Shown here one piece after another: positions 19,695-60,954 of a DNA stretch of 64,000 bases. Under the pieces are notes generated by a model, which worked only from the letters and a program-made list of their open reading frames with translations, had not been told where the DNA came from and did no database searches. How positions within the stretch are numbered: position 1 is the first letter of the stretch; each line of letters starts with the position of its first letter. The stretch spans positions 371 to 64,370 of the forward strand of contig JABFRW010000052.1 in NCBI GenBank assembly GCA_013140805.1, given 5' to 3'. The position numbers and the translations under genes are program-made. The DNA comes from Candidatus Eiseniibacteriota bacterium. GTDB taxonomy: Bacteria > Eisenbacteria > RBG-16-71-46.

Positions 19695-19695
19695 C

Positions 19696-34844: not shown

Positions 34845-34954
34845 CGTATCGAATTTGCCCCTGCCTCGGGACTCGGAGATGACCGTTTCCGCGGGTCGGG
34901 GCTATACTGCGGCCCGTTTTGAGCATCCTTTCCAGCGCTCAGCAAGGAGCCCCC

Positions 34955-36148: not shown

Positions 36149-36522
36149 AGCACTCTCCGGGGTTTCTCGCGCTCGTCAACGACGCCAAGTCGCGCGTGAA
36201 GCAGATGTCGATCGAGGACTACCGCCGTCGCGTCGCGGCCGGCGAGGCGTTCGTGCTGGTCGACACTCGCGAAGACAACGAGTGGGCGAGCGCGCATGCG
36301 ACCGGTGCCATGCACCTGAGCAAGGGCGTGATCGAGCGCGAGATCGAACAGGCGGTGCCCGAGAAGGACGCCCCGGTGGTGCTCTACTGCGGCGGCGGCT
36401 TCCGAAGTGCTCTGGTGGCCGACAACCTTCAGAAGATGGGCTACACCAACGTGATCTCGCTCGACGGCGGCTGGCGCGGCTGGGTCGCGGCCGGGCTCCC
36501 GACCGAAAAGGGTGGCGCGTGA
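36145..36522 (+). CDS. Single-domain rhodanese (sulfurtransferase) protein
   Basis: Active-site 'YCGGGFRS'; ATGA overlap with the upstream gene. Confidence 0.85.
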   Translation: MKHSPGFLALVNDAKSRVKQMSIEDYRRRVAAGEAFVLVDTREDNEWASAHATGAMHLSKGVIEREIEQAVPEKDAPVVLYCGGGFRSALVADNLQKMGYTNVISLDGGWRGWVAAGLPTEKGGA

Positions 36523-38589: not shown

Positions 38590-38641
38590 CGCGACGGAGC
38601 CGCGATAATGGCGGCCGGTGCCGGGCCAGGAGGGCAGAAGC

Positions 38642-40208: not shown

Positions 40209-40294
40209 GCGTTCCTCCTCGAGCAGGTGGGTTCCACTCAGCAGGCTAGCACCCGATGGTGCCACGCCCCCCACTTGGCTATCCTCCGGCCCGC

Positions 40295-44738: not shown

Positions 44739-44770
44739 TTGCGGCCCGCGTCTCACGGCGCGGGCCGCAA
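44739..44770 (+). terminator. Intrinsic terminator after the M13 peptidase gene (12-bp stem ttgcggcccgcg / cgcgggccgcaa, then tcgtttcg)
   Basis: Hairpin 47 bp after the stop, followed by a CCGTCCG x4 direct repeat. Confidence 0.6.
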
Positions 44771-44834
44771 TCGTTTCGTCCGCCGTCCGTCCGCCGTCCG
44801 TCGTGCGCCGCGCCAGGGGCAGGAGAGACTCGCC

Positions 44835-46055
44835 GTGTGGTCACGCATCGAATCCAAGCTGCTTGCGGGTGAACGGCTGATTACCGCCGAAGGCGTCTAT
44901 CTGCTCGCCGAAGCGCCGCTGCTCGAGATGGGTGCACTCGCGAACGAAATGCGGGCTCGCAAGACCGATCCGCGCGTCGTCACGTACGTGATCGATACCA
45001 ATCCGAACTACACCAACCTGTGCACGGTCGACTGCCACTTCTGCGCGTTCTACCGCAAGCCGGGCGCCAACGCCGCCGACGCCTACACGCACGACGTCGA
45101 GGGCGTGATGAAGATGATGGCGCAGGCGCGCAAGGTCGGCGCCACCACCGTGCTTCTTCAGGGCGGCCTCAACCCCGAGATCCCGTGGGAGTTCTACCCG
45201 ACCATCGTGCGCGAGGCGCGGGCGCGTTACCCAGAGATCACGCCGCACTTCTTCTCGGCTCCCGAGATCCACCAGATGATCGAGGTGTCGGGGCTCACCA
45301 TGCGCGGAGTGCTCGAGGCGCTCTACGAGGCGGGTCAGCGCACGCTGCCCGGCGGCGGAGCTGAAATCCTCGCCGACCGCGTGCGCAAACGCGTGTCGGT
45401 CAAGAAGGGCGGGCCCGAGGCGTGGCTCGAGGTCCATCGCACCGCGCACGCGGTCGGCATGCGCTCGACCGCCACCATGATGTACGGCCACGTCGAGACC
45501 CACGCCGAGATCATCGAACACCTCGACTACGTGCGTGCGCTCCAGGACGAGACCCGCGGCTTCACGGCGTTCGTGCCGTGGTCTTACAAGCGCGGCAACA
45601 CGCCGATGGAATCGAAGGTCAAGCACGTGGCCGGTGCCGGCGCCTACCTGCGGGTGCTGGCCGCAGCGCGGCTCTACCTGGACAACTTCGATCACATTCA
45701 GGCGTCGTGGTTCAGCGAGGGCAAGAAGACCGGCCAGATCGCGCTGCACTTCGGCGCCGACGACTTCGGCGGCACGCTGTTCGAAGAGAACGTGCACCTG
45801 GCGACCGGCTGGTCGAACAAGACCACGCTGGCCGAGATCGAAGCACTGATCCGCGAATCGGGCTTCGCCCCGGCGCAGCGCACCACGCTCTACGAGATCC
45901 TGCGAGTCGGCGAGGGCCCCGAGGCGCTCGCGAACCTGTCGGCCGACGTGCCGCTGTTCGTCGAGGCCCTGCGCGAAATGCCGGCCGAGTACCCGGTGCA
46001 ACTCGAGGGCGAAGAGCCCGTCGCGCCCGGGCCGCCGCTGATCATGCCGCGCTAG
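44835..46055 (+). CDS. Radical-SAM MqnC/MqnE-family enzyme (second paralog)
   Basis: 'CTVDCHFCAFY' motif; GTG start preceded by aggagag. Confidence 0.9.
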   Translation: MWSRIESKLLAGERLITAEGVYLLAEAPLLEMGALANEMRARKTDPRVVTYVIDTNPNYTNLCTVDCHFCAFYRKPGANAADAYTHDVEGVMKMMAQARKVGATTVLLQGGLNPEIPWEFYPTIVREARARYPEITPHFFSAPEIHQMIEVSGLTMRGVLEALYEAGQRTLPGGGAEILADRVRKRVSVKKGGPEAWLEVHRTAHAVGMRSTATMMYGHVETHAEIIEHLDYVRALQDETRGFTAFVPWSYKRGNTPMESKVKHVAGAGAYLRVLAAARLYLDNFDHIQASWFSEGKKTGQIALHFGADDFGGTLFEENVHLATGWSNKTTLAEIEALIRESGFAPAQRTTLYEILRVGEGPEALANLSADVPLFVEALREMPAEYPVQLEGEEPVAPGPPLIMPR

Positions 46056-46058
46056 CGA

Positions 46059-47594
46059 GTGGTCCCGCGCGCGCAGACATCACCGGATCGAACGCCGCCG
46101 ATCGACCCCGAGGAGCCGCTCGGTCCGACGCGCCACTTCAAGCCGGTTCCGATCCTGCTCTCGGTGCTCGCCGCATTCATCGTGGCGCAGCTGCGGATTC
46201 CCCACCTCGGCCCCGCGGCGCACGACACCCTCACGATCCTCACGCTCGCGATCGGGCTGTGGTTCACCGAAGCGGTGCCGATCGTGGTGCCGGCGTTGCT
46301 GATCCCGATTCTCGCCACGATGATGGGCGTCACCACGGTTCGTGGCGCGTTCTCGGGCTTCGGCGATCCGATCGTCTACATGTTCCTCGGCACCTTCCTG
46401 CTCACCGAGTCGGCGGCGCGTCACGGGCTCAACGCGCGACTCGCGGCCACGGTGATGAACGCACACTGGGTGCGCGGCAATCCGAAGCATCTGATCTGGG
46501 CACTGGCGCTGCTCGGCTGTGCGATCTCGGCGTTCGTGAACAACACCGCCACCACCGCCATGATCCTGCCGCTGGCACTCACCGCCGAGCGCACGCATCA
46601 TCGCGGGCTGCTGGTCGGCGCGCTGCTCATGGCTGCGTATGCGCCGTCGCTCGGCGGGTTCGCGACGCCGGTCGGCACCGCACCGAACCTGATCGGACTC
46701 GGATTGCTCGAAGCGGCGACCGGAGTGCGACCCTCGTTCGGGCGTTGGATGCTGGTGTTCGCGCCGCTCGCGATCCTGTTCACGATCGGCAGCGCCGCGT
46801 GGCTCCGGTGGCGCGCCGGCTCGGTGGCGCCGGTCGAGCTCACGCGCGACACAGCGATCCCCGCGCCGAGCATCGCCCGCCCGTGGTCGCTGGCCGAGCG
46901 GCTCCTCGTGCCGGTCTTCGGCGTGGTCGTGCTCCTGTGGATCGGTCCCGGCCTGCTTCAGAGCATGCCGGCGCTGGCGAACGCGCCGTTTCTCGAGCTG
47001 CTGCGCAAGCGCCTGCCCGAGACGGTCGTCCCTCTGTTCGGCGGTCTCCTGCTGTTCCTGTTGCCGAGCGGCGGACCCGGCGCGGGCGGGCGGCGCGGAT
47101 GGCGCAACGGCGAGCGCATTCTGGATGTGTCGGTGTTTCGCCGCCTCGAATGGAGCACGCTGCTGCTGTTCGGTGGTGGTCTGTCGCTCGGTGTCATGAT
47201 GTTCGACACCGGTCTCGCTCATTGGATCGGCGGCGGTCTCGCGAATCTGCTGCGCCTCGAGGGGACACCGCTCGCTGGCACCTTCGGTGTGGTGCTGGTC
47301 TCGACGCTGCTCGGAGTGCTGGTGAGCGAGATCACCAGCAACACCGCGAGTGCTTCCCTGGTGGTGCCGGTCGCGATCGCGCTCGCGCAGGTGGCGGGAG
47401 TGGATCCGGTCAAGCCGGCGCTGGCGGCAACGGTCGCATGTTCGTTCGGATTCATGCTGCCGGTTTCGACGCCGCCGAATGCCCTGGTCTACTCGACCGG
47501 GCGGCTGCGGGTCCGCGAGATGATCGCGAACGGAGCGCTCCTCGACCTGGCGGGCATTGCAGTGGTGTCGGTGTGGGTGACGCTTTTCGCCTGA
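46059..47594 (+). CDS. DASS/SLC13-family anion:sodium symporter
   Basis: Multi-TM permease with duplicated 'SNTA/TPPN' reentrant-loop motifs. Confidence 0.85.
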   Translation: MVPRAQTSPDRTPPIDPEEPLGPTRHFKPVPILLSVLAAFIVAQLRIPHLGPAAHDTLTILTLAIGLWFTEAVPIVVPALLIPILATMMGVTTVRGAFSGFGDPIVYMFLGTFLLTESAARHGLNARLAATVMNAHWVRGNPKHLIWALALLGCAISAFVNNTATTAMILPLALTAERTHHRGLLVGALLMAAYAPSLGGFATPVGTAPNLIGLGLLEAATGVRPSFGRWMLVFAPLAILFTIGSAAWLRWRAGSVAPVELTRDTAIPAPSIARPWSLAERLLVPVFGVVVLLWIGPGLLQSMPALANAPFLELLRKRLPETVVPLFGGLLLFLLPSGGPGAGGRRGWRNGERILDVSVFRRLEWSTLLLFGGGLSLGVMMFDTGLAHWIGGGLANLLRLEGTPLAGTFGVVLVSTLLGVLVSEITSNTASASLVVPVAIALAQVAGVDPVKPALAATVACSFGFMLPVSTPPNALVYSTGRLRVREMIANGALLDLAGIAVVSVWVTLFA

Positions 47595-47687
47595 TCCGGC
47601 GCCGCCTCAACGCCACACAAACCAGGCCGCCGGGCTAACTCGCGATGGCTCGCGACGCTGCCGCCTCGGAGGCCCCAACCCATTGAG

Positions 47688-47703
47688 TGGCTTGCACCTT
47701 GCA
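47688..47703 (+). promoter_or_regulatory. Sigma-54-like promoter candidate TGGCttgcaccTTGCA (GG-N10-GC spacing) ~180 bp upstream of the paralog operon
   Basis: -12 element TTGCA exact, -24 element TGGCTT 4/6, correct spacing. Confidence 0.25.
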
Positions 47704-47882
47704 AGTCCCAGGGTAGGAATCGTGCATTCCAGCCAGGCCGAACGGGGATTCGAGGGCGTGCGCGAAGAATCTCGAGTGCGCGCTTGGGGACTCGCGCATC
47801 TGCGTCCTACCATGTTCGACCCTTGCACCCCGCCGTCCGAGCGCCGCGCACACCACATCGAGAGTTCAGGGAGGTATTCCCG

Positions 47883-50800
47883 TTGTTCCGTCGCCTGAGG
47901 ATCCAGGCCGGTTTCGCGGTGCTGCTCGCGGCGATCGCCGTGTCGGCGACCGCCTCGCAGGTCGGCGCGTCGATCACGCTGCCGTACCCGTTCTGGTACT
48001 TCAACGCGGCGCCCGGAACCACGTTCGACACTCCGACCGGCATCGCGTTCATGCCCGACGGCCGGCTGCTGGTGTCCGAGAAGCGCGGCCGCGTCTACGT
48101 GATCAAAGATGGCACCCGGCTCACGACTCCGCTGTGGCAGCGCGAGAACGAGGTGCTGAACAACGGCGACAAGGGATTGCTCGACGTCGCGGTGGATCCC
48201 GACTTCGCGATCAACCGCTACGTCTACCTGCTCTACACGGTGGACCCCGACACCAACGGCGTCGACGACAACGAGGACGCGTTCGGGCGTCTGACGCGCT
48301 ACCAGGTCAGCGCCACCGATCCGAATGTCGTCGACTACGACACCCGCACCGTGCTGATGGGTCGCGTGTGGAACGAGGGCCCGACGATCGGATCGATCAC
48401 GCACTCGATCGGATCGTTGCGGTGGGGCACCGACAAGACGCTGCTGATCTCGATGGGCGACGGCGCGCAGTTCACCGTGATGGACCCGGGTGGGCTCGAC
48501 CCGGCGATGTTCGGCCCCGGCAAGGCGAATCCCTACGAAGACATCGGCGCGTTTCGCGCACAGGACATCACGGTGCTGCCGGGCAAGGTGTTGCGAATCG
48601 ATCCCGCGACCGGGCACGGCATGCCGAGCAATCCGTTCTACGACGGCAACCCGAGCTCGAACCGCTCCAAGGTGTGGGCCTACGGAGTGCGCAATCCGTT
48701 TCGCATCTGCGTGCGTCCCGGCAGCGGCAGCAGCAATCCCGCCGACGGTGACCCCGGTAGCGTGTACGTCGGCGACGTGGGCTGGGAGACCTGGGAAGAG
48801 GTGAGTGTGATCAAGACCGGCGGCACCAACCTGGGCTGGCCGTGCTTCGAGGGCACCCACAACAATTCGCCCTATCAGTCGGCCTCTCCGGCGCACAACG
48901 GCTGCGGCAGCGTGGGCAGCGCCACCAATCCCTCACCCTTCACCGCGCCGTTCACCGACTGGCATCACGCCAACGCATCGCTCAGTTCGCCGTCGGGAGT
49001 GAAAGGCAATTCAGCGATCGGCGGCACGTTCTACACCGGCGTGTCGTGGCCGCTCGCCTTTCGCGGGCGCCTGATCGTCGGCGACTACGGCTACGGCTTC
49101 ATGCGGGTCGCCACCGTCGACGCGAACGATGACGTGACGGCGTGGACCTCGTTCGCGGCCGAAACCGACGGCCCGGTCGACATGGCGACCGGCCCCTACG
49201 ACGGCGATCTCTACTACGTCTCGATCACCACCGGCGAAGTGCGCCGCATCCACTACTTCCGCCCGCTGGGCGGCAACCAGGCGCCCAACGCGGTGGCGGG
49301 CGCCGACCTGCTGCTGGGCACCGCACCGCTGACCGTGCAGTTCTCGAGTGCCGCCAGCAGTGATCCCGACGGCGATTCGCTGCGCACCACGTGGACGTTC
49401 GACGACGGCTCCGGCTCATTCCTCGCGAACCCGACGCACTCTTTCCAGTACGCGGGGACCTATCAGGTGCAACTGCTGGTCGACGACGATCGGTTGAACG
49501 AAGGCACCCACACCGTGACGATCGTGGTGAATCCGTCTCAGCCGTTCCCGGCCACCGGCACGCTCGATGACTTCAACCGCGCCAACGGGCCACTCGGGGC
49601 TTCGTGGAGTGACCCGGTCCATGGCGCTGCGGCGGCCGCGGTGAACGGCAACGACCTGGTGCAGAGCGGCGTCACGCCCACCGAACCGGTGTGGGACCCG
49701 CAGGTCTTCGGCACCGAGCAGGAAGCGTACGTGCGCTTCGACGCCACGACCTCGAACTCGCCCGAGCAGGCGCTGCTTCTCAAGCTGCAGGGGGCGCGCT
49801 CCGATTCGTCGCACATCCGCGTGGTCTACGACGCGCGCTTCCCGCACGTGCAGGTCGCGACTTTCCAGCCCGGCATCGGCGAGGTGGTGCGAGGGGCGGC
49901 GATTCCGATCGAGTTCGTGGTCGGCGACACGCTCGGCGCCCGCGCGTTCGGTAACGGCACCGTGCAGGTGTTCCACAACGGCGCGCTGATCGGCACCGTA
50001 AGCGTGGGCTCGTGGCCCTATGCCGCGAGCGGCGGCCGCATCGGACTGGCGCTTACCGGCGCGCTGCTCACGCGCCTCGACGACTTCGGCGGCGGCAACT
50101 TCGCAGGTGGAGCGAACACCGCGCCGCTCGCGGTCATCGACGCGCCGATCGACAGCGCGTTCTTCGCCGCGCAGGATTCGATCCACATGAGCGGCAGCGG
50201 TGTCGATGCGCAACAGCCGGCCGAGGCGCTGCAATACTTCTGGGATGTCTACCTGCATCACAACACGCACGTGCATCCGAACACCTTCACGAGCTCCAAT
50301 CGCAACGCCGCGATGGTCGCCGAAGATCACGAAGACGGCACCGGCGTGTGGTACGAGGTGCGCCTCTACGTGCAGGACGCCGAAGGGCTGCGCGATACCG
50401 CACGCGTCGATCTGTTCCCCGAGATCAACCTGCGCGCGAGTGAACTCGCGGTCACGCCGGATCCGCCGACCGAGGGTCAGTGGGCGACCTGGAGCTTCAA
50501 GCTCCGCAACCTGGGCCGCATGCCGGCGCCGATCTCGCGCTGGCGTCTGGTACTCGGCAACACACTGCTGGCCGAAGGCGACACTTTGATCGCGCCCGGC
50601 GACAGCGTGCTGATCTCGGCCACGCTCATCAACCCGTTGGGTGGCGGCAGCTTCACTGCCCGGGCGACCGGTGACACCCTGGCCAACGTGGTCGAGACCG
50701 ACGAATCCGACAACGCCTCGATTCGGCAGGTCGAAATGGCCGGATCGCCGGTCGGAGTGGGGCAGGCGCCACAGCGTTTCGCGCTTTCACAGGGATTTCC

Positions 50801-51050
50801 CAACCCCGCCGGCGCCATGGTGCGATTCGGTCTCGATCTGCCCCGACGTGGTGCGGTAGCATTTCGGGTCCTCGACGTTCAGGGTCGCGAGGTGTGGACG
50901 CAAGGCGCGCGGGAATTCGCGGCCGGGCACTGGAATCTCGAGTGGCCGTCACGGTTGGCGGACGGTTCGCGAGCTCCGGCAGGTCTCTACCTCGCGTTGA
51001 TTGCCGTCGAGGGCCGCACGTACGCTCGACGGATTGCGGTCGTGCGATGA
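47883..51050 (+). CDS. Giant secreted multidomain protein, paralog 2: signal peptide, GSDH-like beta-propeller, PKD domain, LDDF-bracketed jelly-roll-like domain, His-cluster domain, CARDB-like domain, T9SS C-terminal domain
   Basis: AGGGAGG-N7-TTG start; 'GLLDVAVDPDF', PKD 'TVQFSSAASSDPDGD', 'YLHHNTHVHPNTF', C-terminus 'FPNPAGAMVRF...GLYLALIAVEGRTYARRIAVVR'. Confidence 0.85.
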   Translation: MFRRLRIQAGFAVLLAAIAVSATASQVGASITLPYPFWYFNAAPGTTFDTPTGIAFMPDGRLLVSEKRGRVYVIKDGTRLTTPLWQRENEVLNNGDKGLLDVAVDPDFAINRYVYLLYTVDPDTNGVDDNEDAFGRLTRYQVSATDPNVVDYDTRTVLMGRVWNEGPTIGSITHSIGSLRWGTDKTLLISMGDGAQFTVMDPGGLDPAMFGPGKANPYEDIGAFRAQDITVLPGKVLRIDPATGHGMPSNPFYDGNPSSNRSKVWAYGVRNPFRICVRPGSGSSNPADGDPGSVYVGDVGWETWEEVSVIKTGGTNLGWPCFEGTHNNSPYQSASPAHNGCGSVGSATNPSPFTAPFTDWHHANASLSSPSGVKGNSAIGGTFYTGVSWPLAFRGRLIVGDYGYGFMRVATVDANDDVTAWTSFAAETDGPVDMATGPYDGDLYYVSITTGEVRRIHYFRPLGGNQAPNAVAGADLLLGTAPLTVQFSSAASSDPDGDSLRTTWTFDDGSGSFLANPTHSFQYAGTYQVQLLVDDDRLNEGTHTVTIVVNPSQPFPATGTLDDFNRANGPLGASWSDPVHGAAAAAVNGNDLVQSGVTPTEPVWDPQVFGTEQEAYVRFDATTSNSPEQALLLKLQGARSDSSHIRVVYDARFPHVQVATFQPGIGEVVRGAAIPIEFVVGDTLGARAFGNGTVQVFHNGALIGTVSVGSWPYAASGGRIGLALTGALLTRLDDFGGGNFAGGANTAPLAVIDAPIDSAFFAAQDSIHMSGSGVDAQQPAEALQYFWDVYLHHNTHVHPNTFTSSNRNAAMVAEDHEDGTGVWYEVRLYVQDAEGLRDTARVDLFPEINLRASELAVTPDPPTEGQWATWSFKLRNLGRMPAPISRWRLVLGNTLLAEGDTLIAPGDSVLISATLINPLGGGSFTARATGDTLANVVETDESDNASIRQVEMAGSPVGVGQAPQRFALSQGFPNPAGAMVRFGLDLPRRGAVAFRVLDVQGREVWTQGAREFAAGHWNLEWPSRLADGSRAPAGLYLALIAVEGRTYARRIAVVR

Positions 51051-51081
51051 CTTCCCGCTTACGCATCGGAGACCTACCGGT

Positions 51082-54000
51082 ATGCTCCCCCGGCTACCCG
51101 GCCTCGCCTTCGTCGTCGCCTGCTTGCTGCTCGTCGCCGTCGCGCTGGCTCCGCGACCCGCTGACGCCATCACCTTCACCGACTCCCTGTTCATCGCCGA
51201 GGATATCGCCCCGGCAGTGACGTGGACCACGCCGACCGGACTGGCGTACCTGCCCGGCGGTCGGCTGCTGGTGATCGAGAAGCGCGGCCGCGTGTATTCC
51301 GTGATGAACGGCATCAAGAGCGCTCAGCCGCTGCTCAATCTCGAGTCCGAGGTGTTGAACGAGGGCGACCGTGGACTGCTCGGAATCGCGGTCGATCCCA
51401 ACTACGTCACGAACCACTTCGTGTACCTGCTCTACACCGTGGATCCCGACTCGAACGACATTGAGACCAACGACGACGCATTCAGCCGCCTGTCGAGATT
51501 CCAGGTCAGCTTCGCGGACTCGACCTCGATGCCCTACGCGAGTCGCGCGGTGCTGTTCGGGCACACCTGGACGAGCGGCGCGATCTCCGCGTCGTCTTCG
51601 CACACTGTCGGCTGCCTGCGCTTCGGTACCGACGGCACGCTGCTGGTCTCGATCGGCGACGGCGGACAGTTCAACGTCACCGATGCCGGTGGCGTCGACC
51701 CCGGGGCGTTCGGCGCCGGCAGGACCGATCCGCTCGAGGACATCGGCGCGTTTCGCGCGCAGTACCTGCAGAGTCTCGCGGGCAAGCTGTTGCGGATCGA
51801 TCCCGCAACCGGCCTCGGACTGCCGAGCAATCCGTTCTACGAGTCGGCGAACCCCGGCTCGGCGCAATCGCGTGTGTGGTGCTACGGCCTGCGCAATCCG
51901 TTCCGATTCGCGCTGCACCCCGCCACCGGCAGCACCGACCCGAGCGCCGGTCAGCCCGGCAGCGCGTTCATCGGCGACGTCGGCTGGACGGCGTGGGAGG
52001 AAACCAACGTCGCGACCACCGGGGGGGTCAACTTCGGCTGGCCGTGCTACGAAGGTTTGAATCCGCAGGACGGCTATCAGGCCGCCACACCGCCACATCA
52101 CGATTGCGCGACCATCGGAACGGTCACGAATCCATCGCCGGCGACGAGCCCCATCATGACCTGGCATCACCTCACGGCGAGTCTCAGCACGCCTCCGGGC
52201 CTGGTCGGAAACGCCGCGACCGCGTGCGTGTTCTACACCGGCGGGCGCTACCCGATCATCTACGCCGGGCGGTTCTTCTTCAGCGACTACGGCGCCGACT
52301 GGATCAACACCGCGGTGCTCGACGGCAACCAGGTACTGGTGAGCACTTCGCCGTGGGCGACCTCGGTCGGCGGCCCGGTCGACCTCGCGCAGGACCCCGT
52401 GAACGGCGAACTGATCGTCGTCAGCATCACGAACAACCAGGTGCTGCGGATTCGCTACGCCGGCACCGTGCCGAACGGCGAGCCGGTCACGGTCGCGAAG
52501 GGCACGCCGCTGGTGGGCATCATGCCGCTGACCGTGAGCTTCTCGAGCGCCGGCACCTTCGATCCGAACGGCGACCCGGTCACGATGACGTGGCTGTTCG
52601 GTGACGGCGAGGGGGCGAGCGGTCCGGCGCCTCAGCACACCTACACCAAGTCGGGAAGCTTCCTGGCGGTGCTCAATGCCGCCGACGATGACGGCAGCAT
52701 CGGCCGCGATACCGTGAACGTGGTGGTGCTCGCTTCTTCGGCGTTCCCGACCACCCCGGTGCTCGACAACTTCAATCGCGCGAACGGACCGATCGGAAGC
52801 CCGTGGGTCGGAATCACGAGCGGGCTCACCATCAACAACAACATGCTGTGGCCGAGCTGCTGTTCACCGAGCACGGTGTGGAGCAGTCAGAGCTTCGGCC
52901 CCAACCAGGAAGCGTTCATTCGATTCCAGGCGATCAGCACCAGCGCGCCCGAACAGGACCTGATGCTCAAGGTGCAGGGGCTCTCGTACACCACCGGGCA
53001 CATCGAAGTGCGCTACGACGCAGCGCTTCACGCGGTTCGCGTGGCAACCTACGTGCTGCCGGGCGGGTGGACGCAACGCGCCTCGTTCCCCACCACCATG
53101 GCGGTCGGTGACGTGATGGGGGCGCGCGCATTCGCGAATGGTGTGATCCAGGTGATCAAAAACGGCGCGGTGCTCGGCCAGACCAGCACCGGCAACTGGC
53201 CGTTTGCCGCCAACGGTGGCTATCTGGGATTGACGATCGCCGGAGCGCAGGCCGCGCGTCTCGACGACTTCGGCGGCGGAAACGTGGTGTTCAGCACCAA
53301 CACGCCGCCGGCCGTCTCGATCGTCTCGCCGCTGCCCGGCGAGTTCTACGTCGAAGGTGAACCGCTGACGCTCAACGGCATCGCCACCGACGGTCAACAG
53401 GAGCCGGGCTCGCTGCCTTACGAGTGGTCGGTCAATCTGCACCACAACAATCACGTGCACCCGAACACCGTGGTCCTGTCGGGACCGACCACCGGATTCA
53501 CGCCCGAGAATCACGACGACGGCACCGGGGTGTGGCTGCAGCTCAAGCTGAGTGTGACCGATGCGGAAGGGCTCTCCGACACGACCAGCATCGCGATCTT
53601 CCCGGAGATCGACCTGGTGGCAGCGCCCGCACTGATCTCGCCCGATCCGCCGGTGACCGGCACCCAGACGTTCGTGAACTTCTGGATCCACAACCGTGGA
53701 CACATGCCGGCGCAGCTCTCGCGCTGGCGGCTGAATCGCGGCAACGAAGTACTGGCGGAAGGCGACACGCTGGTGCCGCCGCTCGATTCGGTGCGTGTGC
53801 AGCGCATCTACCCGGCCGGCAGCTTCGCCGCCGGCCCGCTCACGCTGCGATTCGTCGCCGACACGCTCGGCGTGATTCCCGAGACCGACGAATCCAACAA
53901 TGGGGTGACGATCGAACGCGTGGTGACGGAAGGCGGCGCGGTGGACGTCGAAGCAGCGCCTCTGGCATTCAGCCTCGGTGAGGTGCGCCCCAATCCCAGC

Positions 54001-54240
54001 CCGTCGACGGTCGCGCTGTCGCTCGCGCTGCCGCGCGTGTCGCGCGTCGAGTTCGAAGTGTTCGACGCGCAGGGTCGCGTCGCGCTGCGACGCGCCACGC
54101 GCGCCTACTCGCCGGGGCGGCACGAGTTGCGCTGGGACGGCCGGCTCAATGGCCGCGAAGCCGCGCCCGCCGGGCTCTACTGGGCCCGCGTGACGGTCGA
54201 CGGAGCTCGATATGCGCGGCGCTTCGTGATCGTGAAGTAG
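51082..54240 (+). CDS. Paralog 3, same architecture (~88% nt identity to paralog 4 over the aligned 5' segment (51241-51420 vs 54421-54600))
   Basis: 'GLLGIAVDPNYV', 'NLHHNNHVHPNTV', C-terminus '...GLYWARVTVDGARYARRFVIVK'. Confidence 0.9.
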   Translation: MLPRLPGLAFVVACLLLVAVALAPRPADAITFTDSLFIAEDIAPAVTWTTPTGLAYLPGGRLLVIEKRGRVYSVMNGIKSAQPLLNLESEVLNEGDRGLLGIAVDPNYVTNHFVYLLYTVDPDSNDIETNDDAFSRLSRFQVSFADSTSMPYASRAVLFGHTWTSGAISASSSHTVGCLRFGTDGTLLVSIGDGGQFNVTDAGGVDPGAFGAGRTDPLEDIGAFRAQYLQSLAGKLLRIDPATGLGLPSNPFYESANPGSAQSRVWCYGLRNPFRFALHPATGSTDPSAGQPGSAFIGDVGWTAWEETNVATTGGVNFGWPCYEGLNPQDGYQAATPPHHDCATIGTVTNPSPATSPIMTWHHLTASLSTPPGLVGNAATACVFYTGGRYPIIYAGRFFFSDYGADWINTAVLDGNQVLVSTSPWATSVGGPVDLAQDPVNGELIVVSITNNQVLRIRYAGTVPNGEPVTVAKGTPLVGIMPLTVSFSSAGTFDPNGDPVTMTWLFGDGEGASGPAPQHTYTKSGSFLAVLNAADDDGSIGRDTVNVVVLASSAFPTTPVLDNFNRANGPIGSPWVGITSGLTINNNMLWPSCCSPSTVWSSQSFGPNQEAFIRFQAISTSAPEQDLMLKVQGLSYTTGHIEVRYDAALHAVRVATYVLPGGWTQRASFPTTMAVGDVMGARAFANGVIQVIKNGAVLGQTSTGNWPFAANGGYLGLTIAGAQAARLDDFGGGNVVFSTNTPPAVSIVSPLPGEFYVEGEPLTLNGIATDGQQEPGSLPYEWSVNLHHNNHVHPNTVVLSGPTTGFTPENHDDGTGVWLQLKLSVTDAEGLSDTTSIAIFPEIDLVAAPALISPDPPVTGTQTFVNFWIHNRGHMPAQLSRWRLNRGNEVLAEGDTLVPPLDSVRVQRIYPAGSFAAGPLTLRFVADTLGVIPETDESNNGVTIERVVTEGGAVDVEAAPLAFSLGEVRPNPSPSTVALSLALPRVSRVEFEVFDAQGRVALRRATRAYSPGRHELRWDGRLNGREAAPAGLYWARVTVDGARYARRFVIVK

Positions 54241-54262
54241 CCGGATGCATCGGAGGGTCGGC

Positions 54263-57200
54263 ATGCTCTCGAGACGCGCCGGCCGCTTGTTCGCGGCTGC
54301 TCTGATCGTCACTGCAATTGGGATCGCACCCCGACCCGCACGCGCGATCGCCTTCAGCGATCCGTTGTTCGTTGCCGAGGACGTGGCCCCCGGAGCGAGC
54401 TGGAGCACGCCGACCGGACTGGCCTACCTGCCCGGCGGCCGGCTGCTGGTGATCGAGAAGCGCGGTCGCGTGTACTCGGTGATGAACGGAATCAAGAGCG
54501 CGCAGCCGCTGCTCAATCTCGAACTCGAGGTACTGAACGAAGGCGATCGCGGCCTGCTCGGAATCGCCGTCGACCCGAACTACGTCTCGAACCACTCGGT
54601 GTATCTGCTCTACACGGTGGACCCCGATTCGAACAACGTCGAGACCAACGATGATGCGTTCAGCCGGCTGTCGCGATTCCAGATCGGCTTCGCGGACTCG
54701 ACCGTGATCGCCTACTCGTCGCGTGCGGTTCTGTTCGGCTCCACCTGGACGAACGGAGCGGTCTCGGCGGCGTCTTCGCACACCATCGGTTGTCTGCGCT
54801 TTGGAAGCGACGGAACCCTGCTCGTGTCGGTCGGCGATGGGGGTCAGTTCAGCGGCGCCGATGCGGGCGGACTGGACCCCGGTGCGTTCGGCGCCGGCAG
54901 GACCGATCCGCTCGAAGACATCGGAGCGTTTCGCGCGCAGTACCTGCAGAGCCTCGCTGGAAAGCTGCTGCGGCTCGATCCGGCGACCGGTCGGGGACTG
55001 CCGAGCAATCCGTTCTATCAAGCCGGCAGTCCGAGCTCTGCCCAGTCTCGCGTGTGGGCCTACGGACTTCGGAACCCGTTCCGCTTCGCGATGCGACCCG
55101 GCACCGGCAGCTCGAATCCTGGCGTGGGTCAGCCGGGCGTGGCGTTCATCGACGACGCGGGCTGGTTCACGTGGGAGGAAACCAACGTCGCGGTGACCGG
55201 AGGACTCAACTTCGGTTGGCCTTGTTACGAAGGGTTCAACCCGCAGAATGCGTATCAGGGTGCCGTGCCGTCGCACCACGGCTGCGCGACCATCGGCACT
55301 CCCGCGAATCCCTCGCCGCGAGCGAACCCGCTGATCGCGTGGCATCACGGCGACTCGCTGCTCAGCACGCCGGCGGGTCTGATCGGCAATGCGGCGACGG
55401 CGTGTCTTTTCTACACCGGGAGTCGCTACCCGACCGGCTTCGCCGGCCGGTTCTTCTTTAGCGACTACGGGCGCAATTGGATCGACACCGCCGTGATGGA
55501 CGCCAGTCACGCGCTCGTGAGCACCGCGCCGTGGGCCACTTCCGCGGATGGCCCGGTCGACATGGCGCAGGATCCCGCGAGCGGCGAGATCGTGCTCGTG
55601 ACACTCGCGAACAACAAGGTGCTGCGCGTTCGATACACCGGAGCGGGATCGAACGGTGCTCCGTTGGCATTCGCAGCCGGCACGCCGCGCGTCGGGGTGG
55701 CGCCCTGCCTGGTGAACTTCTCGAGCGCGGGCACGTTCGATCCGAATGGTGATCCACTCACGCTCAACTGGCTGTTCGGCGACGGTACCGGCGCGAGTGG
55801 TCCAGCGCCCTCGCACTCGTACACGGTGGCGGGCAGCTATCAGGCGACCCTCACCGCGCGCGACAATCACGGCGACATCGGTCGCGATACTGTGACCATC
55901 GTGGTGCTGGGCTCGTCGGTTTTTCCGACCACCGCGGTGCTCGACAACTTCAACCGCGCGAACGGCCCGCTCGGCGGCGCGTGGGTCGACAATGCGAACG
56001 GGCTCGCGATCAATGGCAACCAGCTCACGCAGACGTGCTGCACTCCGAGCACGGTGTGGAGCGGGCAGAGCTTCGGGCCCAACCAGGAGGCCTACGTCCG
56101 CTTCCTGGCCGTCACGCCGGGCGCCGACGAACAGGACCTGATGCTCAAGGTTCAGGGGCTCTCGTACAGCACCGGCCACATCGAGGTGCGCTACGACGCG
56201 GTGCTCGCGGCGGTGCGTGTGTCGACCTATCTGCCCTCGACGAGCTGGACGCAATGGGCAGCGTTTCCGACCACGATGGCGGTCGGCGACGTGCTGGGTG
56301 CCCGCGCGTTCTCGAACGGCATGATTCAGGTGATGAAGAATGGCGCTTTGCTGGGCGAGACCACGAGCGGTGAGTGGCCGTTCGCCGCCAACGGAGGCTA
56401 CCTGGGGCTGACGTTTGCGGGTGCGCTGACGTCGCGACTCGATGACTTCGGCGGAGGCACCATCGTGCTCAATCCGAACACCGCACCGAACGCCACCGTC
56501 ACCTCACCGCCCTCCGGCCAGTTCTATGTGGAGGGGATTCCGATTGCGCTGACCGGAACCGCCACCGATGCGCAGCAGAGCTCGGCGTCCCTTCAGTACG
56601 ACTGGTCGGTCGACCTGCATCACAACAACCACGTTCATCCGAGCACCGTGGTGTTGTCGGGCGCTTCGACCGGCTTCACGCCCGAGAACCACGACGACGG
56701 CACGGGTGTGTGGCTCGAGGTCAAGCTGCTGGCGATGGACTCGGGCGGGCTCGCTGACACCGCCGGCATCGCGCTCTATCCTGAAATCGACCTCCAGGCA
56801 AAGGCCGGCTTGATCTCGCCGGATCCACCCACCACCGGGACGCAGACGTTCGTGAACTTCTGGATCCACAATCGTGGCCGCATGCCGGCGCAACGGTCGC
56901 GCTGGCGACTCAACCGCGGCGCGCAGATGCTCGCCGAGGGCGACACGCTGGTGGCACGACTCGACTCGGTTCGCGTTCAGCGCGTGTTCCCGGCCGGCAC
57001 GTTCGTGGCGGGTCCACTCACGCTGCGATTCCGGGCGGACACGCTCGGCACCGTGCCCGAGACCAACGAGGCGAACAACGGAGTGACGGTTCAACGCACC
57101 GTGATCCAGGGCGGTGCGGTCGCCGTCGAGCCGCCACCGATCGCATTCGGTCTCGGCGAGTCGCGCCCGAATCCGAGTGCCTCGAGCGTTGCATTCTCGC

Positions 57201-57418
57201 TGGACCTGCCGCGGGCGGCGAGCGTGACGTTCGAAGTATTCGACGCCCAGGGCCGTGTCGCCTTTCGGAGCCTCGGACGGACACTCGCACCCGGGCGCCA
57301 CACGCTGGACTGGAGCGGACGCGTCGAAGGTCGTGAGCCGGCAGCGCCGGGGCTCTACTGGGCACGCGTGACGGTCGACGGCGTCCGCTACGCCCGTCGC
57401 TTCGTGATCGTCAGGTAG
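54263..57418 (+). CDS. Paralog 4, same architecture
   Basis: GGAGGG-N5-ATG start; 'DLHHNNHVHPSTV'; C-terminus '...RRFVIVR'. Confidence 0.9.
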   Translation: MLSRRAGRLFAAALIVTAIGIAPRPARAIAFSDPLFVAEDVAPGASWSTPTGLAYLPGGRLLVIEKRGRVYSVMNGIKSAQPLLNLELEVLNEGDRGLLGIAVDPNYVSNHSVYLLYTVDPDSNNVETNDDAFSRLSRFQIGFADSTVIAYSSRAVLFGSTWTNGAVSAASSHTIGCLRFGSDGTLLVSVGDGGQFSGADAGGLDPGAFGAGRTDPLEDIGAFRAQYLQSLAGKLLRLDPATGRGLPSNPFYQAGSPSSAQSRVWAYGLRNPFRFAMRPGTGSSNPGVGQPGVAFIDDAGWFTWEETNVAVTGGLNFGWPCYEGFNPQNAYQGAVPSHHGCATIGTPANPSPRANPLIAWHHGDSLLSTPAGLIGNAATACLFYTGSRYPTGFAGRFFFSDYGRNWIDTAVMDASHALVSTAPWATSADGPVDMAQDPASGEIVLVTLANNKVLRVRYTGAGSNGAPLAFAAGTPRVGVAPCLVNFSSAGTFDPNGDPLTLNWLFGDGTGASGPAPSHSYTVAGSYQATLTARDNHGDIGRDTVTIVVLGSSVFPTTAVLDNFNRANGPLGGAWVDNANGLAINGNQLTQTCCTPSTVWSGQSFGPNQEAYVRFLAVTPGADEQDLMLKVQGLSYSTGHIEVRYDAVLAAVRVSTYLPSTSWTQWAAFPTTMAVGDVLGARAFSNGMIQVMKNGALLGETTSGEWPFAANGGYLGLTFAGALTSRLDDFGGGTIVLNPNTAPNATVTSPPSGQFYVEGIPIALTGTATDAQQSSASLQYDWSVDLHHNNHVHPSTVVLSGASTGFTPENHDDGTGVWLEVKLLAMDSGGLADTAGIALYPEIDLQAKAGLISPDPPTTGTQTFVNFWIHNRGRMPAQRSRWRLNRGAQMLAEGDTLVARLDSVRVQRVFPAGTFVAGPLTLRFRADTLGTVPETNEANNGVTVQRTVIQGGAVAVEPPPIAFGLGESRPNPSASSVAFSLDLPRAASVTFEVFDAQGRVAFRSLGRTLAPGRHTLDWSGRVEGREPAAPGLYWARVTVDGVRYARRFVIVR

Positions 57419-57841
57419 ATGCGCGTGTCGCGTTCGATCGGAGCGAACTCCCGGCATTCAAGATTCGGCGCGATCGTTGCCCTGGCCCTCGTCCTTCACG
57501 GCTGCGCCGGTTCGCGTCCTCCGATCGAGCCGCTGCCGGGTGCTGCCGAGGTCGGCGAGGCTTCGTACTACGCGCGACACTTCCAGGGTCGCCGCACCGC
57601 GAACGGGGAGCGCTTCGATCAGGCCGAGCTGACCGCGGCGCATCGCACGCTGCCGTTCGGCACCCGCGTCAAGGTCACGAACCTTGCGAATGGCGCGAGC
57701 GTGTTCCTGCGCATCAACGATCGCGGACCGTTTCGCCGCGGACGCGTGATCGACGTGTCGCGGCGCGCGGCCCGCGAACTCGGCTTCCTGCGAGAGGGCG
57801 TGACGCGCGTCCGGGTCGAGGTGATGCCCGACCCGCCGTAG
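57419..57841 (+). CDS. RlpA-like (double-psi beta-barrel) lipoprotein
   Basis: Lipobox 'LVLHGCAG'; DPBB '[20 protein letters not shown]...[25 protein letters not shown]'; start abuts the paralog 4 stop (TAGATG). Confidence 0.85.
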
Positions 57842-59533
57842 CGATCGTGCTGCGTGCGAGCGAAGCTCCCGTGCGGCGAGTGCCGGCGCCAGCGGCCCCA
57901 GCTCGAGCCAGATCACGGTGAAGCCGTCGGCGGTGCGAAAGCGGCGCTCCTGAATGGCCCCGAGCGTCGCGTGGGTGCGTGCCGCTCCCGGGCGCTCGGC
58001 GATCTCGACCCATGCGGGCCACGCGCGATCCGAATCGCGAAGCGCGAGCAGCACGAAGCGGAACTCGTGCAATCGTCGAAGCGGCGAAACCTCATCGGGC
58101 GTGAGCGCCAGCTGAAGGACCGGGCGCTCGAGCGGCCACGCGAGCAGGGGACCGAGGTTCGACATCACCGTCGCGCCGGCCGGCGCGCGCTGCACGAGCA
58201 GGTCCGCGATCGATCGCAGCGACTCGGTCGACGGCACCACGCGCGCATCGAGTGCGCGTTGCGCGGCGCGATTGCCCTCGCTGCTCTGCCGGACGCCCCA
58301 GCCGAGCGCCAGCACGGCAACGCTCGCGATCAGCAGGTTGCGAGCGCGTGCGCCCAACATCGCATCGGGTGCCCGGCTCAGCAGTCCGACGAGCGAGAGC
58401 CACCCCGCAGCTTCGAGCGGCAGCCGGCTCGGGAACATCTCGCGCGGCCACGGAAGCGTAACCGCGGCGGCGACGACTCCGAGCGTCGCGGCGCCGAGGG
58501 CTGCGAGCACGGCCGCGACGAGCGCACGCGCCGGGCGTGCGATCACCAGCCACAGCACCAGAGAGCCGAACCACAAGCCGCGCAATCCCGTGAGTGACAG
58601 GAGCAACAACTCGGGCAGCTGTCTCGAGAGCTTCGCCGCGAGCAACGGAATGGCGTCCGCCCCGCGGTTCGAATCCCACGCCGGCGATCCGAAGGCACGC
58701 CACTTGTAGGTCCACCAGGGTGCGAGCGGAATCACGCCGCCGAGCACCGCGAGCGCCAGCACGCGTCGACGAGTCCCAGGCGCAGCGCTCCACGCGGCCG
58801 CGAGGATCGCGAGCGGGCCGAGCCACGCGATGCCGGGCCGGAACAGGCCGGTGACTCCCAGCACCACGCCGAACGCCAGCGGCCAGCGCGCTGCATGCCC
58901 GAGCGCGATCGCGAACAACAACGCGGTCCAGCCCAGTGTGAAAGGCAATTCGGGCAGCCCGTTCACCGCGAGGTGTTGTGCCTCAGGGTCGAGCCACACC
59001 AGCAACGCAGCGACAGAGGCGAGCAGCAGTCGCGGAACCCTCGATGTCGAAACTGCACCGGAGGCACCCCGGGCGACCGCGTTCGAGCCCGGTTCGCGGT
59101 ACGGCTCTCCGGGTGAGTCCGAGATTCGCAAGGTGCCGATGAACACCACGAGCCCGAGCAAGATGAAGCATGCAACCGGGCTTGCCAGCGTGAGCGGCGC
59201 GAGTGACTCAGGCGAGGTGCCGGCTCCGAACATGCGCGCGACCGTGAACAGAAGCGCCTCGACCAGCACCAGTCCCGGCTGCACAATCGCGAGCGGCCAC
59301 GGTGGCGCGGGGTGGCTCGCCAGCTCGATCGGCAGCGCGAAGAGAGTCGCGAGGCGGCCGTGAAGCGCCAGCTCGCGCGCGGCAATCGCGACCTGCGCCG
59401 CATCGCCATTGAGCAGCGGCGTGTGGCCGCCGAGGTCCCAGGCGCGCGCGTGAAGCCACCACGCGAGTCCGCCCATCGCACTCAGCAGAACGGCGAGCAG
59501 GCGGGCCGGCCACGACTTCCAGGTCGCCGTCAT
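57458..59533 (-). CDS. GT-C-fold (ArnT/PMT-like, GT39/83) polytopic membrane glycosyltransferase; 3' boundary uncertain because the open frame runs antisense through rlpA
   Basis: ~11 TM segments, first-loop '[14 protein letters not shown]' resembling the DE-motif loop. ORF remains open to 57458, overlapping the RlpA-like gene by ~380 bp. Confidence 0.6.
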
Positions 59534-59579
59534 GGCGGCAGAGTAGGGGGCGTGCCGAATCGTGTCGAGAGGTCGCGAA

Positions 59580-60434
59580 CTAGACGATGTCGATCGTCGG
59601 AACCGTCGGGATCGCACCGATCCGTACGGCACTCTCGTACAACTTCGCGAGCGCCTTGCGGCCCAGATCGCCCATGTCGAGCGTCAGGTCGTTGACGTAC
59701 ATGTGCACGAACTTCTTGCCCTGTGTCACGTCCAGTCCGCGTCCGAACTGAAGCGCATAGCGGATCGCTTCGTCCTCGTGGTCGAGCGCGTCCTGGATGC
59801 TGGCGCGAAAGCCGTCGCTGGCGGCTCGCATGAGTTCGGGGCCCAGGTCGCGCCGGATCACGTCGAGTCCGAGCGGAACCGGCAGGCCGTCCCGTTCCTC
59901 CCACAGCTCGCCGAAGTCGAGGACCTTGACGAGGCCCTCGTCGCGATACGTGAGCTGGCTCTCGTGAATGATCACGCCGGCTTCGACTTCGCCCGCGAGC
60001 ACCGCGCCCGGGATGCGATCGAACATGACATCGACCGGAATGCAATCGGGGCACTCGATCTTGAGCAGCAGCGCCGCGGTGGTGAGCGGCCCCGGGATCG
60101 CGACACGCTTGCCGTGCAGCGACTTCATGTTGCGTGCCTCGCGCGCCACCACCAGCGGCCCGTAGCCCTGACCCATCGAGGCGCCGCAGCGCATCACCGC
60201 GAATCGATCGGTGAGAAATGCGTAGGCGTGCGCCGACACCGCGGTGATCTCGAGGTCGCCGTGTTCGAGTGCCCGACGATTGAGTGATTGAATGTCCTGC
60301 AGCACGTGTTCCACGCGGCAGCCGGCGATCTGGGCGCGGCCGGTGTGGAAGCCGTAGAACATGTAGGCGTCGTCGGCGTCGGGGCTGTGGCCGAAACGAA
60401 GAGTTCGCAGGGTCGTGCCGGGCGAGGTGGTCAT
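59580..60434 (-). CDS. mqnD: 1,4-dihydroxy-6-naphthoate synthase MqnD (futalosine pathway)
   Basis: 'LRFGHSPDADDAYMFYG...LQDIQSLNRRALEHGDLEITAVSAHAY' matches the MqnD 'SPCPNDTF...VLEDVETLN' pattern. Confidence 0.85.
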   Translation of the reverse strand: MTTSPGTTLRTLRFGHSPDADDAYMFYGFHTGRAQIAGCRVEHVLQDIQSLNRRALEHGDLEITAVSAHAYAFLTDRFAVMRCGASMGQGYGPLVVAREARNMKSLHGKRVAIPGPLTTAALLLKIECPDCIPVDVMFDRIPGAVLAGEVEAGVIIHESQLTYRDEGLVKVLDFGELWEERDGLPVPLGLDVIRRDLGPELMRAASDGFRASIQDALDHEDEAIRYALQFGRGLDVTQGKKFVHMYVNDLTLDMGDLGRKALAKLYESAVRIGAIPTVPTIDIV

Positions 60435-60489
60435 GTGAGCGCTCCCAAGGGTCAAGAGTCGCGCAGGATAGCGCACACGCGGCCGTGGC

Positions 60490-60954
60490 TCACACGCGAG
60501 GTGCGAGATAGTCCGCAAGTCGTGCGAGTGCTCGCGGCCAGGCCGCGCGGTACTGCTCGGCGATCGGTTCGTAGTCGGGCCGCGCCGGCAGGGTGTGCGT
60601 GACGCGCAGCCGGCAGGCCCCGCCGACTGCACCCTTCGGATCGAGCCGGAACTCGACGCGGCCCGCGTAGCCGCTCGAGTCCGCTGCCGAGCGTGGCGGG
60701 TAGCCCGCATGCCCGCCCTCGTAGGCGCAGGCCAGCGGCGGCTCGAATCCCGTCCAGGTCGCCTGAAACGGCAGCCCTGAGCGGCCGGGCCGCGTCCACT
60801 CGAGCGTCAGGCGGCCGCCGGCCCGCGGTTCGCTGACCGCCCAATCGCAGAACCAGGCCTGCAGATGGCGGCCCTCGGTCAGCACGTCGAACAGCCGCGC
60901 GGGCGGGGCCGCGAGCGTCCGATCGAAGGCGAGAACCTGTTCGGGGTGCGTCAT
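60490..60954 (-). CDS. SRPBCC (START/Aha1-like) domain protein
   Basis: 154 aa with the typical 'RLFDVLTE...LQAWF' start of an SRPBCC fold. Confidence 0.75.
   Translation of the reverse strand: MTHPEQVLAFDRTLAAPPARLFDVLTEGRHLQAWFCDWAVSEPRAGGRLTLEWTRPGRSGLPFQATWTGFEPPLACAYEGGHAGYPPRSAADSSGYAGRVEFRLDPKGAVGGACRLRVTHTLPARPDYEPIAEQYRAAWPRALARLADYLAPRV

Follow-up and report, generated by a model that had tools for sequence, protein, structure and literature searches.

Layout and domain make-up of the tandem genes

The subject of this study is a 64,000-nt stretch of DNA (hereafter, the window; G+C content, 67%) from Candidatus Eiseniibacteriota bacterium (GenBank assembly GCA_013140805.1, contig JABFRW010000052.1), in which three long genes, designated g1, g2 and g3, lie in tandem on the plus strand and are followed by an rlpA-like gene. 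An earlier note had described them from the sequence as an operon encoding giant secreted quinoprotein-like proteins with a type IX secretion system (T9SS) sorting domain, ending in an RlpA-like lipoprotein. The three open reading frames (ORFs) were found where that note had placed them, ending at 51050, 54240 and 57418, and the tandem arrangement is real and more than chance. Reading of the junctions in the sequence verified the reported gaps of 31 nt between g1 and g2 (51051-51081, after the g1 stop codon at 51048-51050), 22 nt between g2 and g3 (54241-54262, after the g2 stop codon at 54238-54240) and 0 nt between g3 and rlpA, where the TAG at 57416-57418 directly abuts the ATG at 57419 (TAGATG).

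Shine-Dalgarno-like GGAGG motifs were present 5-9 nt before the starts of g1, g2 and g3. The TTG start of g1 was preceded by a ribosome-binding-type GGGAGG at 47869-47874, and the ATG of g3 at 54263 by GGAGGG; an alternative g3 start further upstream, at the ATG of 54245, is less probable. The promoter and ribosome-binding site of g1 are probably located in the stretch that separates it from the CitMHS-type transporter gene. A motif search upstream of g1 in 10 orthologous loci yielded only GC-rich 9-mers, each common to at most 4 loci. A scan of 46000-60000 for sigma-70 promoters and intrinsic terminators, which is uninformative for this phylum, gave counts at or below shuffle expectation; it revealed no intergenic terminator-like site between g1-g3 and rlpA, at a performance no better than chance level. 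An Rfam scan of the whole window matched zero families. The tight same-strand spacing of g1-g3 and rlpA fits co-transcription of the four genes.

Each of the three proteins is predicted to contain, in the same order, a signal peptide, a six-bladed GSDH propeller, a PKD domain, a concanavalin-A-like lectin module ('LDDF' module), an immunoglobulin (Ig)-like domain with a histidine cluster (HisIg), a CARDB domain and a T9SS-type C-terminal domain. The N-termini of g1-g3, as read from the translations, showed an Arg in the n-region, a hydrophobic core and an A-x-A-type site, which are features of a Sec signal peptide. The propeller and PKD domain proposed earlier were both matched by Pfam hidden Markov models: GSDH (PF07995) scored 120.4, 99.9 and 93.4 bits in g1, g2 and g3, respectively, and 181 bits in a distant paralog elsewhere in the window, far above the cut-off of 25, and PKD_4 scored 52-64 bits in g1-g3. 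The CARDB assignment was borderline (22.2-24.4 bits against a cut-off of 22.7), g1 lying above the cut-off and g2 just under it. The earlier description of g1-g3 as putative secreted proteins of several domains, among them a GSDH-type propeller, PKD, CARDB and a T9SS type A-like domain at the C-terminus, is supported.

The LDDF and His-cluster stretches had no Pfam family and no significant sequence match in the PDB, and both were modelled from family alignments. In the model, the LDDF module formed a beta-sandwich jelly roll that superposed on lectin and carbohydrate-binding module (CBM) structures in fold comparison, with the two LDDF motifs in the first and last predicted strands. The module is accordingly modelled as a concanavalin-A-like lectin or CBM-type beta-sandwich, and the His-cluster domain as an Ig fold. 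A word-indexed homolog search with the two modules gave 16 matches, mostly fragments. The coordinates of the features are listed in Table 1.

Table 1 Features of the g1-g3 locus and of related genes in the window
Feature	Coordinates	Strand	Description
Intergenic region before g1	47595-47882	+	288 nt, between CitMHS-type transporter gene and g1
g1	47883-51050	+	1055 aa, TTG start not ATG; identical to NCBI NOT33500.1 'PKD domain-containing protein'
g1 GSDH propeller	47970-49262	+	aa 30-460; PF07995 120 bits
g1 PKD	49269-49532	+	aa 463-550; PKD_4 63.9 bits; matches ColH PKD domains in PDB
g1 LDDF lectin module	49548-50108	+	aa 556-742
g1 HisIg	50118-50426	+	aa 746-848
g1 CARDB-like domain	50436-50726	+	aa 852-948; PF07705 24.4 bits, cut-off 22.7
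g1 C-terminal sorting-type domain	50778-51047	+	aa 966-1055; FlgD_ig 21.1 bits, sub-threshold
g2	51082-54240	+	1052 aa, ATG start; six-domain architecture as in g1
g2 GSDH propeller	51178-52464	+	
g2 PKD	52471-52728	+	
g2 lectin module	52747-53292	+	
g2 HisIg	53302-53610	+	
g2 CARDB	53626-53910	+	
g2 C-terminal domain	53968-54237	+	
g3	54263-57418	+	1051 aa; identical to NCBI NOT33502.1 'PKD domain-containing protein'; sister of g2
g3 GSDH propeller	54359-55642	+	
g3 PKD	55649-55906	+	
g3 lectin module	55925-56467	+	
g3 HisIg	56480-56788	+	
g3 CARDB	56810-57088	+	
g3 C-terminal domain	57149-57415	+	
rlpA-like	57419-57841	+	140 aa, DPBB only; lipoprotein-like signal VLHG-C; identical to NCBI NOT33503.1 'septal ring lytic transglycosylase RlpA family protein'
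Convergent polytopic membrane protein	57458-59632	-	conserved beside GSDH gene in orthologous loci; homology ends ~57862
Distant GSDH paralog	22498-25554	-	canonical subfamily: propeller, I-set Ig, His-cluster Ig (23797-24120), 'SWSDGG'-type beta domain, unknown region, same C-terminal domain
Fifth ORF with sorting-type domain	33782-34981	-	399 aa; FlgD_ig 31.9 bits, above cut-off; family profile E 3e-15; N-terminal part without Pfam match

Conservation of the propeller, C-terminal and His-cluster domains

In the family alignment of 25 full-length relatives (mean column identity, 60%; members only ca. 50% identical), H174, R270, E305, W319-P320-C321 (in a GWPC-x-EG motif) and C341 of the propeller were invariant, N271 was at least 90% conserved, and R455/R457 were near-invariant. 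When compared by phmmer, H174 fell on the 'IHNGG' histidine of 3A9G, the Pyrobaculum enzyme with bound PQQ, and R270-N271 aligned to the 'RNP' motif of 2ISM, 2G8S, 7CDY and 3A9G. In soluble glucose dehydrogenase (sGDH), which uses pyrroloquinoline quinone (PQQ), His144 is catalytic, and Arg228 and Asn229 are PQQ ligands (PMC6881789). Since H174 and R270-N271 align to catalytic and PQQ-binding residues of the sGDH type, the active site of the g1-type propellers looks maintained. These propellers are ca. 100 residues longer than the canonical-type propeller of the distant paralog, with conserved insertions including the Cys321/Cys341 pair.

The C-terminal domain reaches the last residue in g1-g3. 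With TIGR04183 (Por_Secre_tail), it scored 22.2 bits in g2, 20.9 bits in g3 and 22.7 bits in the distant paralog against a cut-off of 23, and g1 was unmatched; Pfam FlgD_ig scored 21-25 bits in g1-g3, under the cut-off of 27. Across the family, 24 of the 25 members matched TIGR04183 at E<=0.01 (best, 3.6e-7). The type of sorting domain that had been claimed is supported at the level of the family, while the window copies are sub-threshold (g2 and g3) or unmatched (g1). A profile of the family's C-terminal domain matched five ORFs in the window, namely g1-g3, the distant paralog and the ORF at 33782-34981. It also matched many unrelated ORFs in Eisenbacterial loci, together with Bacteroidota/Chlorobi-type homologs, and zero of the Planctomycetota, Myxococcota and Acidobacteriota homologs. 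The profile is limited to loci of the Fibrobacteres-Chlorobi-Bacteroidetes (FCB) type, a pattern consistent with a T9SS type A-like sorting tag whose use depends on the lineage.

In the HisIg domain, an H-x2-H-x-H cluster (H793, H796 and H798 in g1 numbering), D775 and D832 were invariant among the 25 members, and H816 was near-invariant. A profile of this domain matched 9,489 cluster representatives at E<=1e-3, many of which were giant repeat proteins matching only in its generic, Big_7-like N-terminal half. Many full-length matches carried a GSDH propeller; among 20 sequences that were read, some were without a propeller or were fragments. Those with a propeller included proteins built like the distant paralog (GSDH, I-set Ig, HisIg and an 'SWSDGG' beta domain). 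The domain was paired with GSDH propellers in two distinct architectures and in several phyla. In P0155, P0189 and P0208, which carry several HisIg and 'SWSDGG' repeats, HH-x2-H-x-H was kept only in the repeat nearest the propeller, and the distal repeats had lost their histidines. The HisIg domain is the one feature here that hints at something undescribed, and the support for this is circumstantial.

Family spread, age of the paralogs and gene neighbourhood

A word-indexed homolog search returned 1,494 matches at E<=1e-5, of which more than 100 were near full length with 45-62% identity, and the source names of these relatives included 'PQQ-dependent sugar dehydrogenase', 'glucose/arabinose dehydrogenase' and 'PKD repeat protein'. 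Relatives were encoded in at least 573 stretches of species-representative genomes, the best 80 of which were examined as loci, with architectures taken from domain profiles built on the family alignment. Eisenbacterial contigs encoded the GSDH-PKD-lectin-HisIg-CARDB-C-terminal domain architecture, longer versions of it, or GSDH-PKD-lectin-C-terminal domain; among metagenome-assembled genomes (MAGs) of Eisenbacteria, the full set of domains is common. GSDH-PKD-HisIg proteins with other C-terminal parts were encoded on Planctomycetota, Myxococcota, Blastocatellia (Acidobacteriota), Rhodothermales, Bacteroidota and Chlorobi-type contigs, and the GSDH-PKD-HisIg core is thus present in at least five phyla. 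Tandem arrays of two copies were observed in loci L003, L004 and L005, and arrays of three in the Planctomycetota loci L050 (4858-16502) and L052. GSDH-PKD-HisIg genes also formed two-copy arrays in L073 and L030, from MAGs labelled as a delta-proteobacterium and a member of Bacteroidota. Local amplification is a general habit of this family. Since the core spans phyla and arrays recur, the family is not lineage-specific, contrary to what had been proposed, and its tandem repetition is not unusual. Within this large and widespread family, already annotated and uncharacterised, the g1-g3 locus is unexceptional.

Overall, g2 and g3 shared 75% nucleotide and 72% amino-acid identity, and g1 was ca. 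47% identical to either at the amino-acid level; g2 and g3 were sisters in a neighbour-joining tree, with g1 as a deep branch. The earlier note had read a DNA identity of ca. 88% between 51241-51420 and 54421-54600 as a sign of recent duplication. These segments as written shared 19% identity, and the similarity reappeared as 87.8% when the second was shifted by 2 nt to 54419-54598. Identity at four-fold sites was 0.57 for g2/g3 and 0.56 for g1/g2 (chance expectation, 0.38), so that synonymous sites are as diverged between the sisters as between g1 and g2. The g2/g3 value was flat along the genes (ca. 0.57), and no block of lower synonymous divergence or gene-conversion tract was seen in this pair. 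Since g1 and g2 are also most alike in the same 5' segment, the identity in this segment reflects protein constraint. Recent duplication or gene conversion of g2/g3 was rejected, as sliding-window identity tracks protein conservation and the g1/g2 peaks coincide; the g2/g3 duplication is old.

The distant paralog was 27% identical in its propeller and 30% identical in its His-cluster domain. It had been described as replacing the middle modules with Ig-like domains; an I-set Ig domain is indeed present, but the His-cluster domain and the C-terminal domain are kept. A gene for a thioredoxin-like/TPR protein (25629-27149, minus strand) lies immediately upstream of it on the same strand.

On the same strand upstream of g1 are genes for MqnA/D-type, FMN reductase, AIM24, M13 peptidase and MqnC/E-type radical SAM proteins and the CitMHS transporter; the membrane-protein gene and an MqnA/D-type gene lie downstream on the minus strand. 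The order of an MqnC/E gene, a CitMHS gene (in some cases), one or two family genes, a convergent membrane-protein gene and, further on, a minus-strand MqnA/D gene was kept, whole or in part, in ca. 10 Eisenbacteria-type loci (L001-L006, L008, L011, L022 and L023). Among the loci examined, the MqnC/E-GSDH-MqnA/D order was not kept outside Eisenbacteria-type contigs. We take this conserved position to be synteny by descent; there is a small chance that it has a functional meaning. Three of these loci from one soil MAG series, L003, L006 and L008, are labelled Candidatus Limnocylindria, Saccharimonadaceae and Udaeobacter; they show the Eisenbacterial synteny with ca. 50% identical orthologs, and their contigs are probably mis-binned or mislabelled. 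Futalosine-type menaquinone genes surround both GSDH loci of the window, encoding UbiA, UbiD, two MqnC/E-type radical SAM proteins, another radical SAM protein and two MqnA/D-type proteins (18082-21585, 34883-36148, 38609-39538, 40250-41089, 44739-46055 and, on the minus strand, 59580-60710).

The assignment of the gene after g3 to the RlpA family, with a lipoprotein-like signal, was borne out (TIGR00413, 145.2 bits against a cut-off of 82.15; PF03330, 85.5 bits). Pfam gave DPBB_1 alone in the 140-aa protein and no SPOR domain, which leaves its description as peptidoglycan-binding without support. In none of 82 related loci did the 10 kb around the family gene encode an RlpA homolog, even at E<0.1, and three close homologs on long contigs lay in unrelated gene neighbourhoods; short DPBB-only RlpA proteins are extremely common in metagenomes. 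In L001, L004, L006, L008, L011 and L023, the membrane-protein gene follows the family gene on the opposite strand, ending just past its conserved C-terminus, and the window homolog (57863-59632, minus strand) was 43% identical to the L001 membrane protein. Since the membrane-protein gene directly follows the GSDH gene in orthologous loci, rlpA looks inserted between two convergent genes. It is a locus-specific insertion and a chance neighbour rather than a conserved, meaningful partner.

In the window, the membrane-protein ORF no longer has its usual stop codon and runs 134 extra codons (57458-57862) antisense through rlpA, with an overlap of 384 nt. This part showed no coding-type signature in the G+C content at third codon positions (GC3) and had no homologs, and is either a genuine C-terminal extension that arose when rlpA was inserted or the product of an error in the sequence or assembly. 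The possibility that the whole ORF at 57458-59632 is an artefact was rejected, as it is a real conserved gene in which only the last 134 codons are without a coding signature.

Elsewhere in the window, a gene for an IS200/IS605-type Y1 transposase (11937-12509, minus strand) lies directly beside a LexA-type repressor gene (12510-13151, minus strand). The segment at 1-9271 encodes jag-like R3H, mnmE, mnmG, formate-tetrahydrofolate ligase, rsmG, parA, parB and bactofilin genes; since this set is typical of origins, the window is probably near the chromosomal origin. Two TonB-dependent receptors and a CBM9/DUF5916 protein are also encoded (13616-15712, minus strand; 36090-38570 and 30870-33662, plus strand). 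E. coli is known to take up PQQ in a TonB-dependent manner (bioRxiv 10.1101/2022.06.07.495086).

Proposed function and comparison with known systems

Based on the predicted domains and their conservation, g1-g3 are probably a tandem array of old paralogs encoding secreted, surface or extracellular PQQ/Ca-dependent sugar or glycan dehydrogenases with a lectin-type targeting module, with rlpA as an insertion that is not a partner. It is hypothesised that the proteins act as described below. Each protein would be exported by Sec through its signal peptide and, in a host of the FCB group, would cross the outer membrane and probably be anchored at the surface by means of its T9SS type A C-terminal domain. 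The propeller would bind scavenged PQQ and Ca2+ outside the cell and oxidise a sugar or glycan, as the conserved His, the Arg-Asn pair and the invariant Glu suggest. The lectin, judging by its fold, would target the enzyme to carbohydrate, and PKD, CARDB and HisIg would serve as spacers; speculatively, HisIg may also bind metal. The array would have grown by duplication at a fixed Eisenbacterial position, between the MqnC/E-type radical-SAM gene (with CitMHS) and the convergent membrane-protein gene, which is followed by the MqnA/D-type gene. The small DPBB lytic-transglycosylase-family rlpA would be an insertion at the 3' end that is particular to this lineage, and may ride the same transcript.

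Several points weigh against this hypothesis. TIGR03606, the curated model of PQQ glucose/sorbosone dehydrogenases, gave 45.6, 40.4 and 37.4 bits for g1-g3 against a cut-off of 434.55; judged by these scores, the three proteins fall outside this group (non_repeat_PQQ) and in a distinct subfamily. The propeller insertions are large and subfamily-specific, so the substrate and even the cofactor could differ. The PQQ carboxylates in sGDH are bound by the C-terminal Arg residues Arg406 and Arg408, and R455-I-R457, conserved in the family, is a candidate for this Arg-x-Arg; as regards the Ca2+ ligands, E305 is conserved. The C-terminal domains of g1-g3 each score just below curated cut-offs, with no TIGR04183 match in g1. 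Within the 64-kb window, neither pqq genes nor T9SS core genes (PorK/L/M/N, SprA/Sov, PorV and PorU) were found, and a literature search for Eisenbacteria with T9SS or type IX secretion retrieved no paper. The proposed co-transcription is drawn solely from gene spacing.

The low TIGR03606 scores and the lack of pqq genes in the window would also suit non-catalytic surface adhesins or binding proteins, in which the propeller is a ligand-binding scaffold as in vertebrate hedgehog-interacting protein, and the lectin and Ig-like domains attach to polysaccharide or cells. Binding or spacer modules make up four of the six domains, and the propeller also matches hedgehog-interacting protein structures. 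However, the His, the Arg-Asn pair and the acidic residue are invariant or nearly so in 25 members that are only ca. 50% identical, which is the pattern of a maintained PQQ/Ca site, and we regard a purely adhesive role as unlikely, though it retains some weight.

A catalytic propeller could, in addition, work with HisIg as a metal centre, serving as an electron relay or second catalytic site like the cytochrome domain of fungal AA12 enzymes. This proposal appears doubtful to us. The three invariant and one nearly invariant histidines, the company of GSDH propellers in two architectures and several phyla, and the retention of the cluster only in the propeller-proximal copy of P0155, P0189 and P0208 speak for it, but the domain's structural neighbours, Ig, PKD and Fn3 modules, are ordinary spacers and include no homolog of a metal site, Eisenbacterial GSDH-PKD-lectin-C-terminal domain variants do without it, and His-rich loops can be purely structural. 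It is equally improbable that HisIg is a metal-binding module dedicated to GSDH propellers, which would make these proteins bacterial extracellular 'quino-metalloproteins' that pass electrons of reduced PQQ (PQQH2) to, or act on the substrate at, a His-ligated metal site, functionally like the AA12 cytochrome domain.

The retention of the mqn position in ca. 10 loci, although the proteins are only 45-55% identical, and the UbiA/UbiD-type genes adjoining the distant paralog could be taken as a tie to menaquinone metabolism by the futalosine pathway, through co-regulation or a shared quinone-related function. Such a tie is very unlikely: the signal peptide and outer-membrane sorting domain imply an extracellular role, only Eisenbacteria-type loci show the synteny, which is missing around homologs in other phyla, the mqn genes on either side differ in strand or have unrelated genes in between, and longer Eisenbacterial family members are encoded elsewhere (L009 and L013-L021). 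There is scarcely any likelihood that g1-g3 and the RlpA-like lipoprotein form one functional unit, e.g. for local peptidoglycan remodelling coupled to cargo export or anchoring, as the abutting stop and start codons and the absence of a terminator-like site between the genes are set against the missing SPOR domain, the lack of RlpA in all 82 related loci, orthologous loci that pass straight from GSDH to the membrane-protein gene, and close homologs beside unrelated genes.

If g1-g3 do encode secreted PQQ dehydrogenases, Eisenbacteria, along with several more phyla of uncultured soil and sediment bacteria, would use modular PQQ-dependent sugar oxidoreductases at the cell surface or extracellularly, much as AA12 enzymes are used by wood-decay fungi, which would bear on polysaccharide attack by all these organisms and on environmental PQQ sharing. 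The more striking claims of the earlier note, i.e. the RlpA partnership, the lineage-specific expansion and the recent duplication, failed, and the family was already annotated by NCBI. The practical leads are the LDDF lectin-like module and the HisIg domain, both well-folded, widespread and without a Pfam family; the consistent link of HisIg to GSDH propellers is worth follow-up.

Among known systems, the RlpA-like protein resembles the RlpA family (TIGR00413) in its DPBB domain and lipoprotein-like signal, and differs from E. coli RlpA, which has a SPOR domain, in its length of 140 aa, the absence of SPOR and a lipobox His at position -2. With T9SS type A cargo of Bacteroidota (TIGR04183/PF18962), g1-g3 share an N-terminal signal peptide and an Ig-like domain of ca. 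80-90 aa at the extreme C-terminus, and in both cases the tag recurs on unrelated proteins of one genome; g1-g3 differ in scoring just under the cut-offs and in their host, Eisenbacteria, for which the literature search retrieved no T9SS study. The canonical-type GSDH-Ig-HisIg-'SWSDGG' proteins (e.g. P0213, P0225, P0249 and the gene at 22498-25554) have a propeller of the same family and also the HisIg motif W-x-[VI]-x-[LF]-H-H-x-x-H-x-H. Their propeller, however, is of another subfamily (27% identity), PKD and lectin are lacking, and the HisIg unit, which is often repeated, is followed by a different beta domain.

The soluble PQQ aldose/glucose dehydrogenases, i.e. A. calcoaceticus sGDH, E. 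coli Asd/YliI (2G8S) and Pyrobaculum PQQ-ASD (3A9G/3A9H), are alike in the six-bladed propeller, catalytic His and Arg-Asn pair, whereas the similarity of g1-g3 to the solved structures is low (phmmer, 38-62 bits, with partial propeller coverage) and their propeller, ca. 100 residues longer with conserved insertions and a Cys pair, is fused to five further domains and scores far under the TIGR03606 cut-off. The fungal AA12 pyranose dehydrogenases share with g1-g3 an extracellular modular PQQ propeller, a carbohydrate-binding module and a possible electron-handling domain; CcPDH, for instance, consists of an AA8 cytochrome domain, an AA12 PQQ propeller and CBM1 (PMC6881789). Unlike these enzymes, g1-g3 are bacterial and have a predicted concanavalin-A-like lectin in place of CBM1 and a His-cluster Ig domain in place of cytochrome b.

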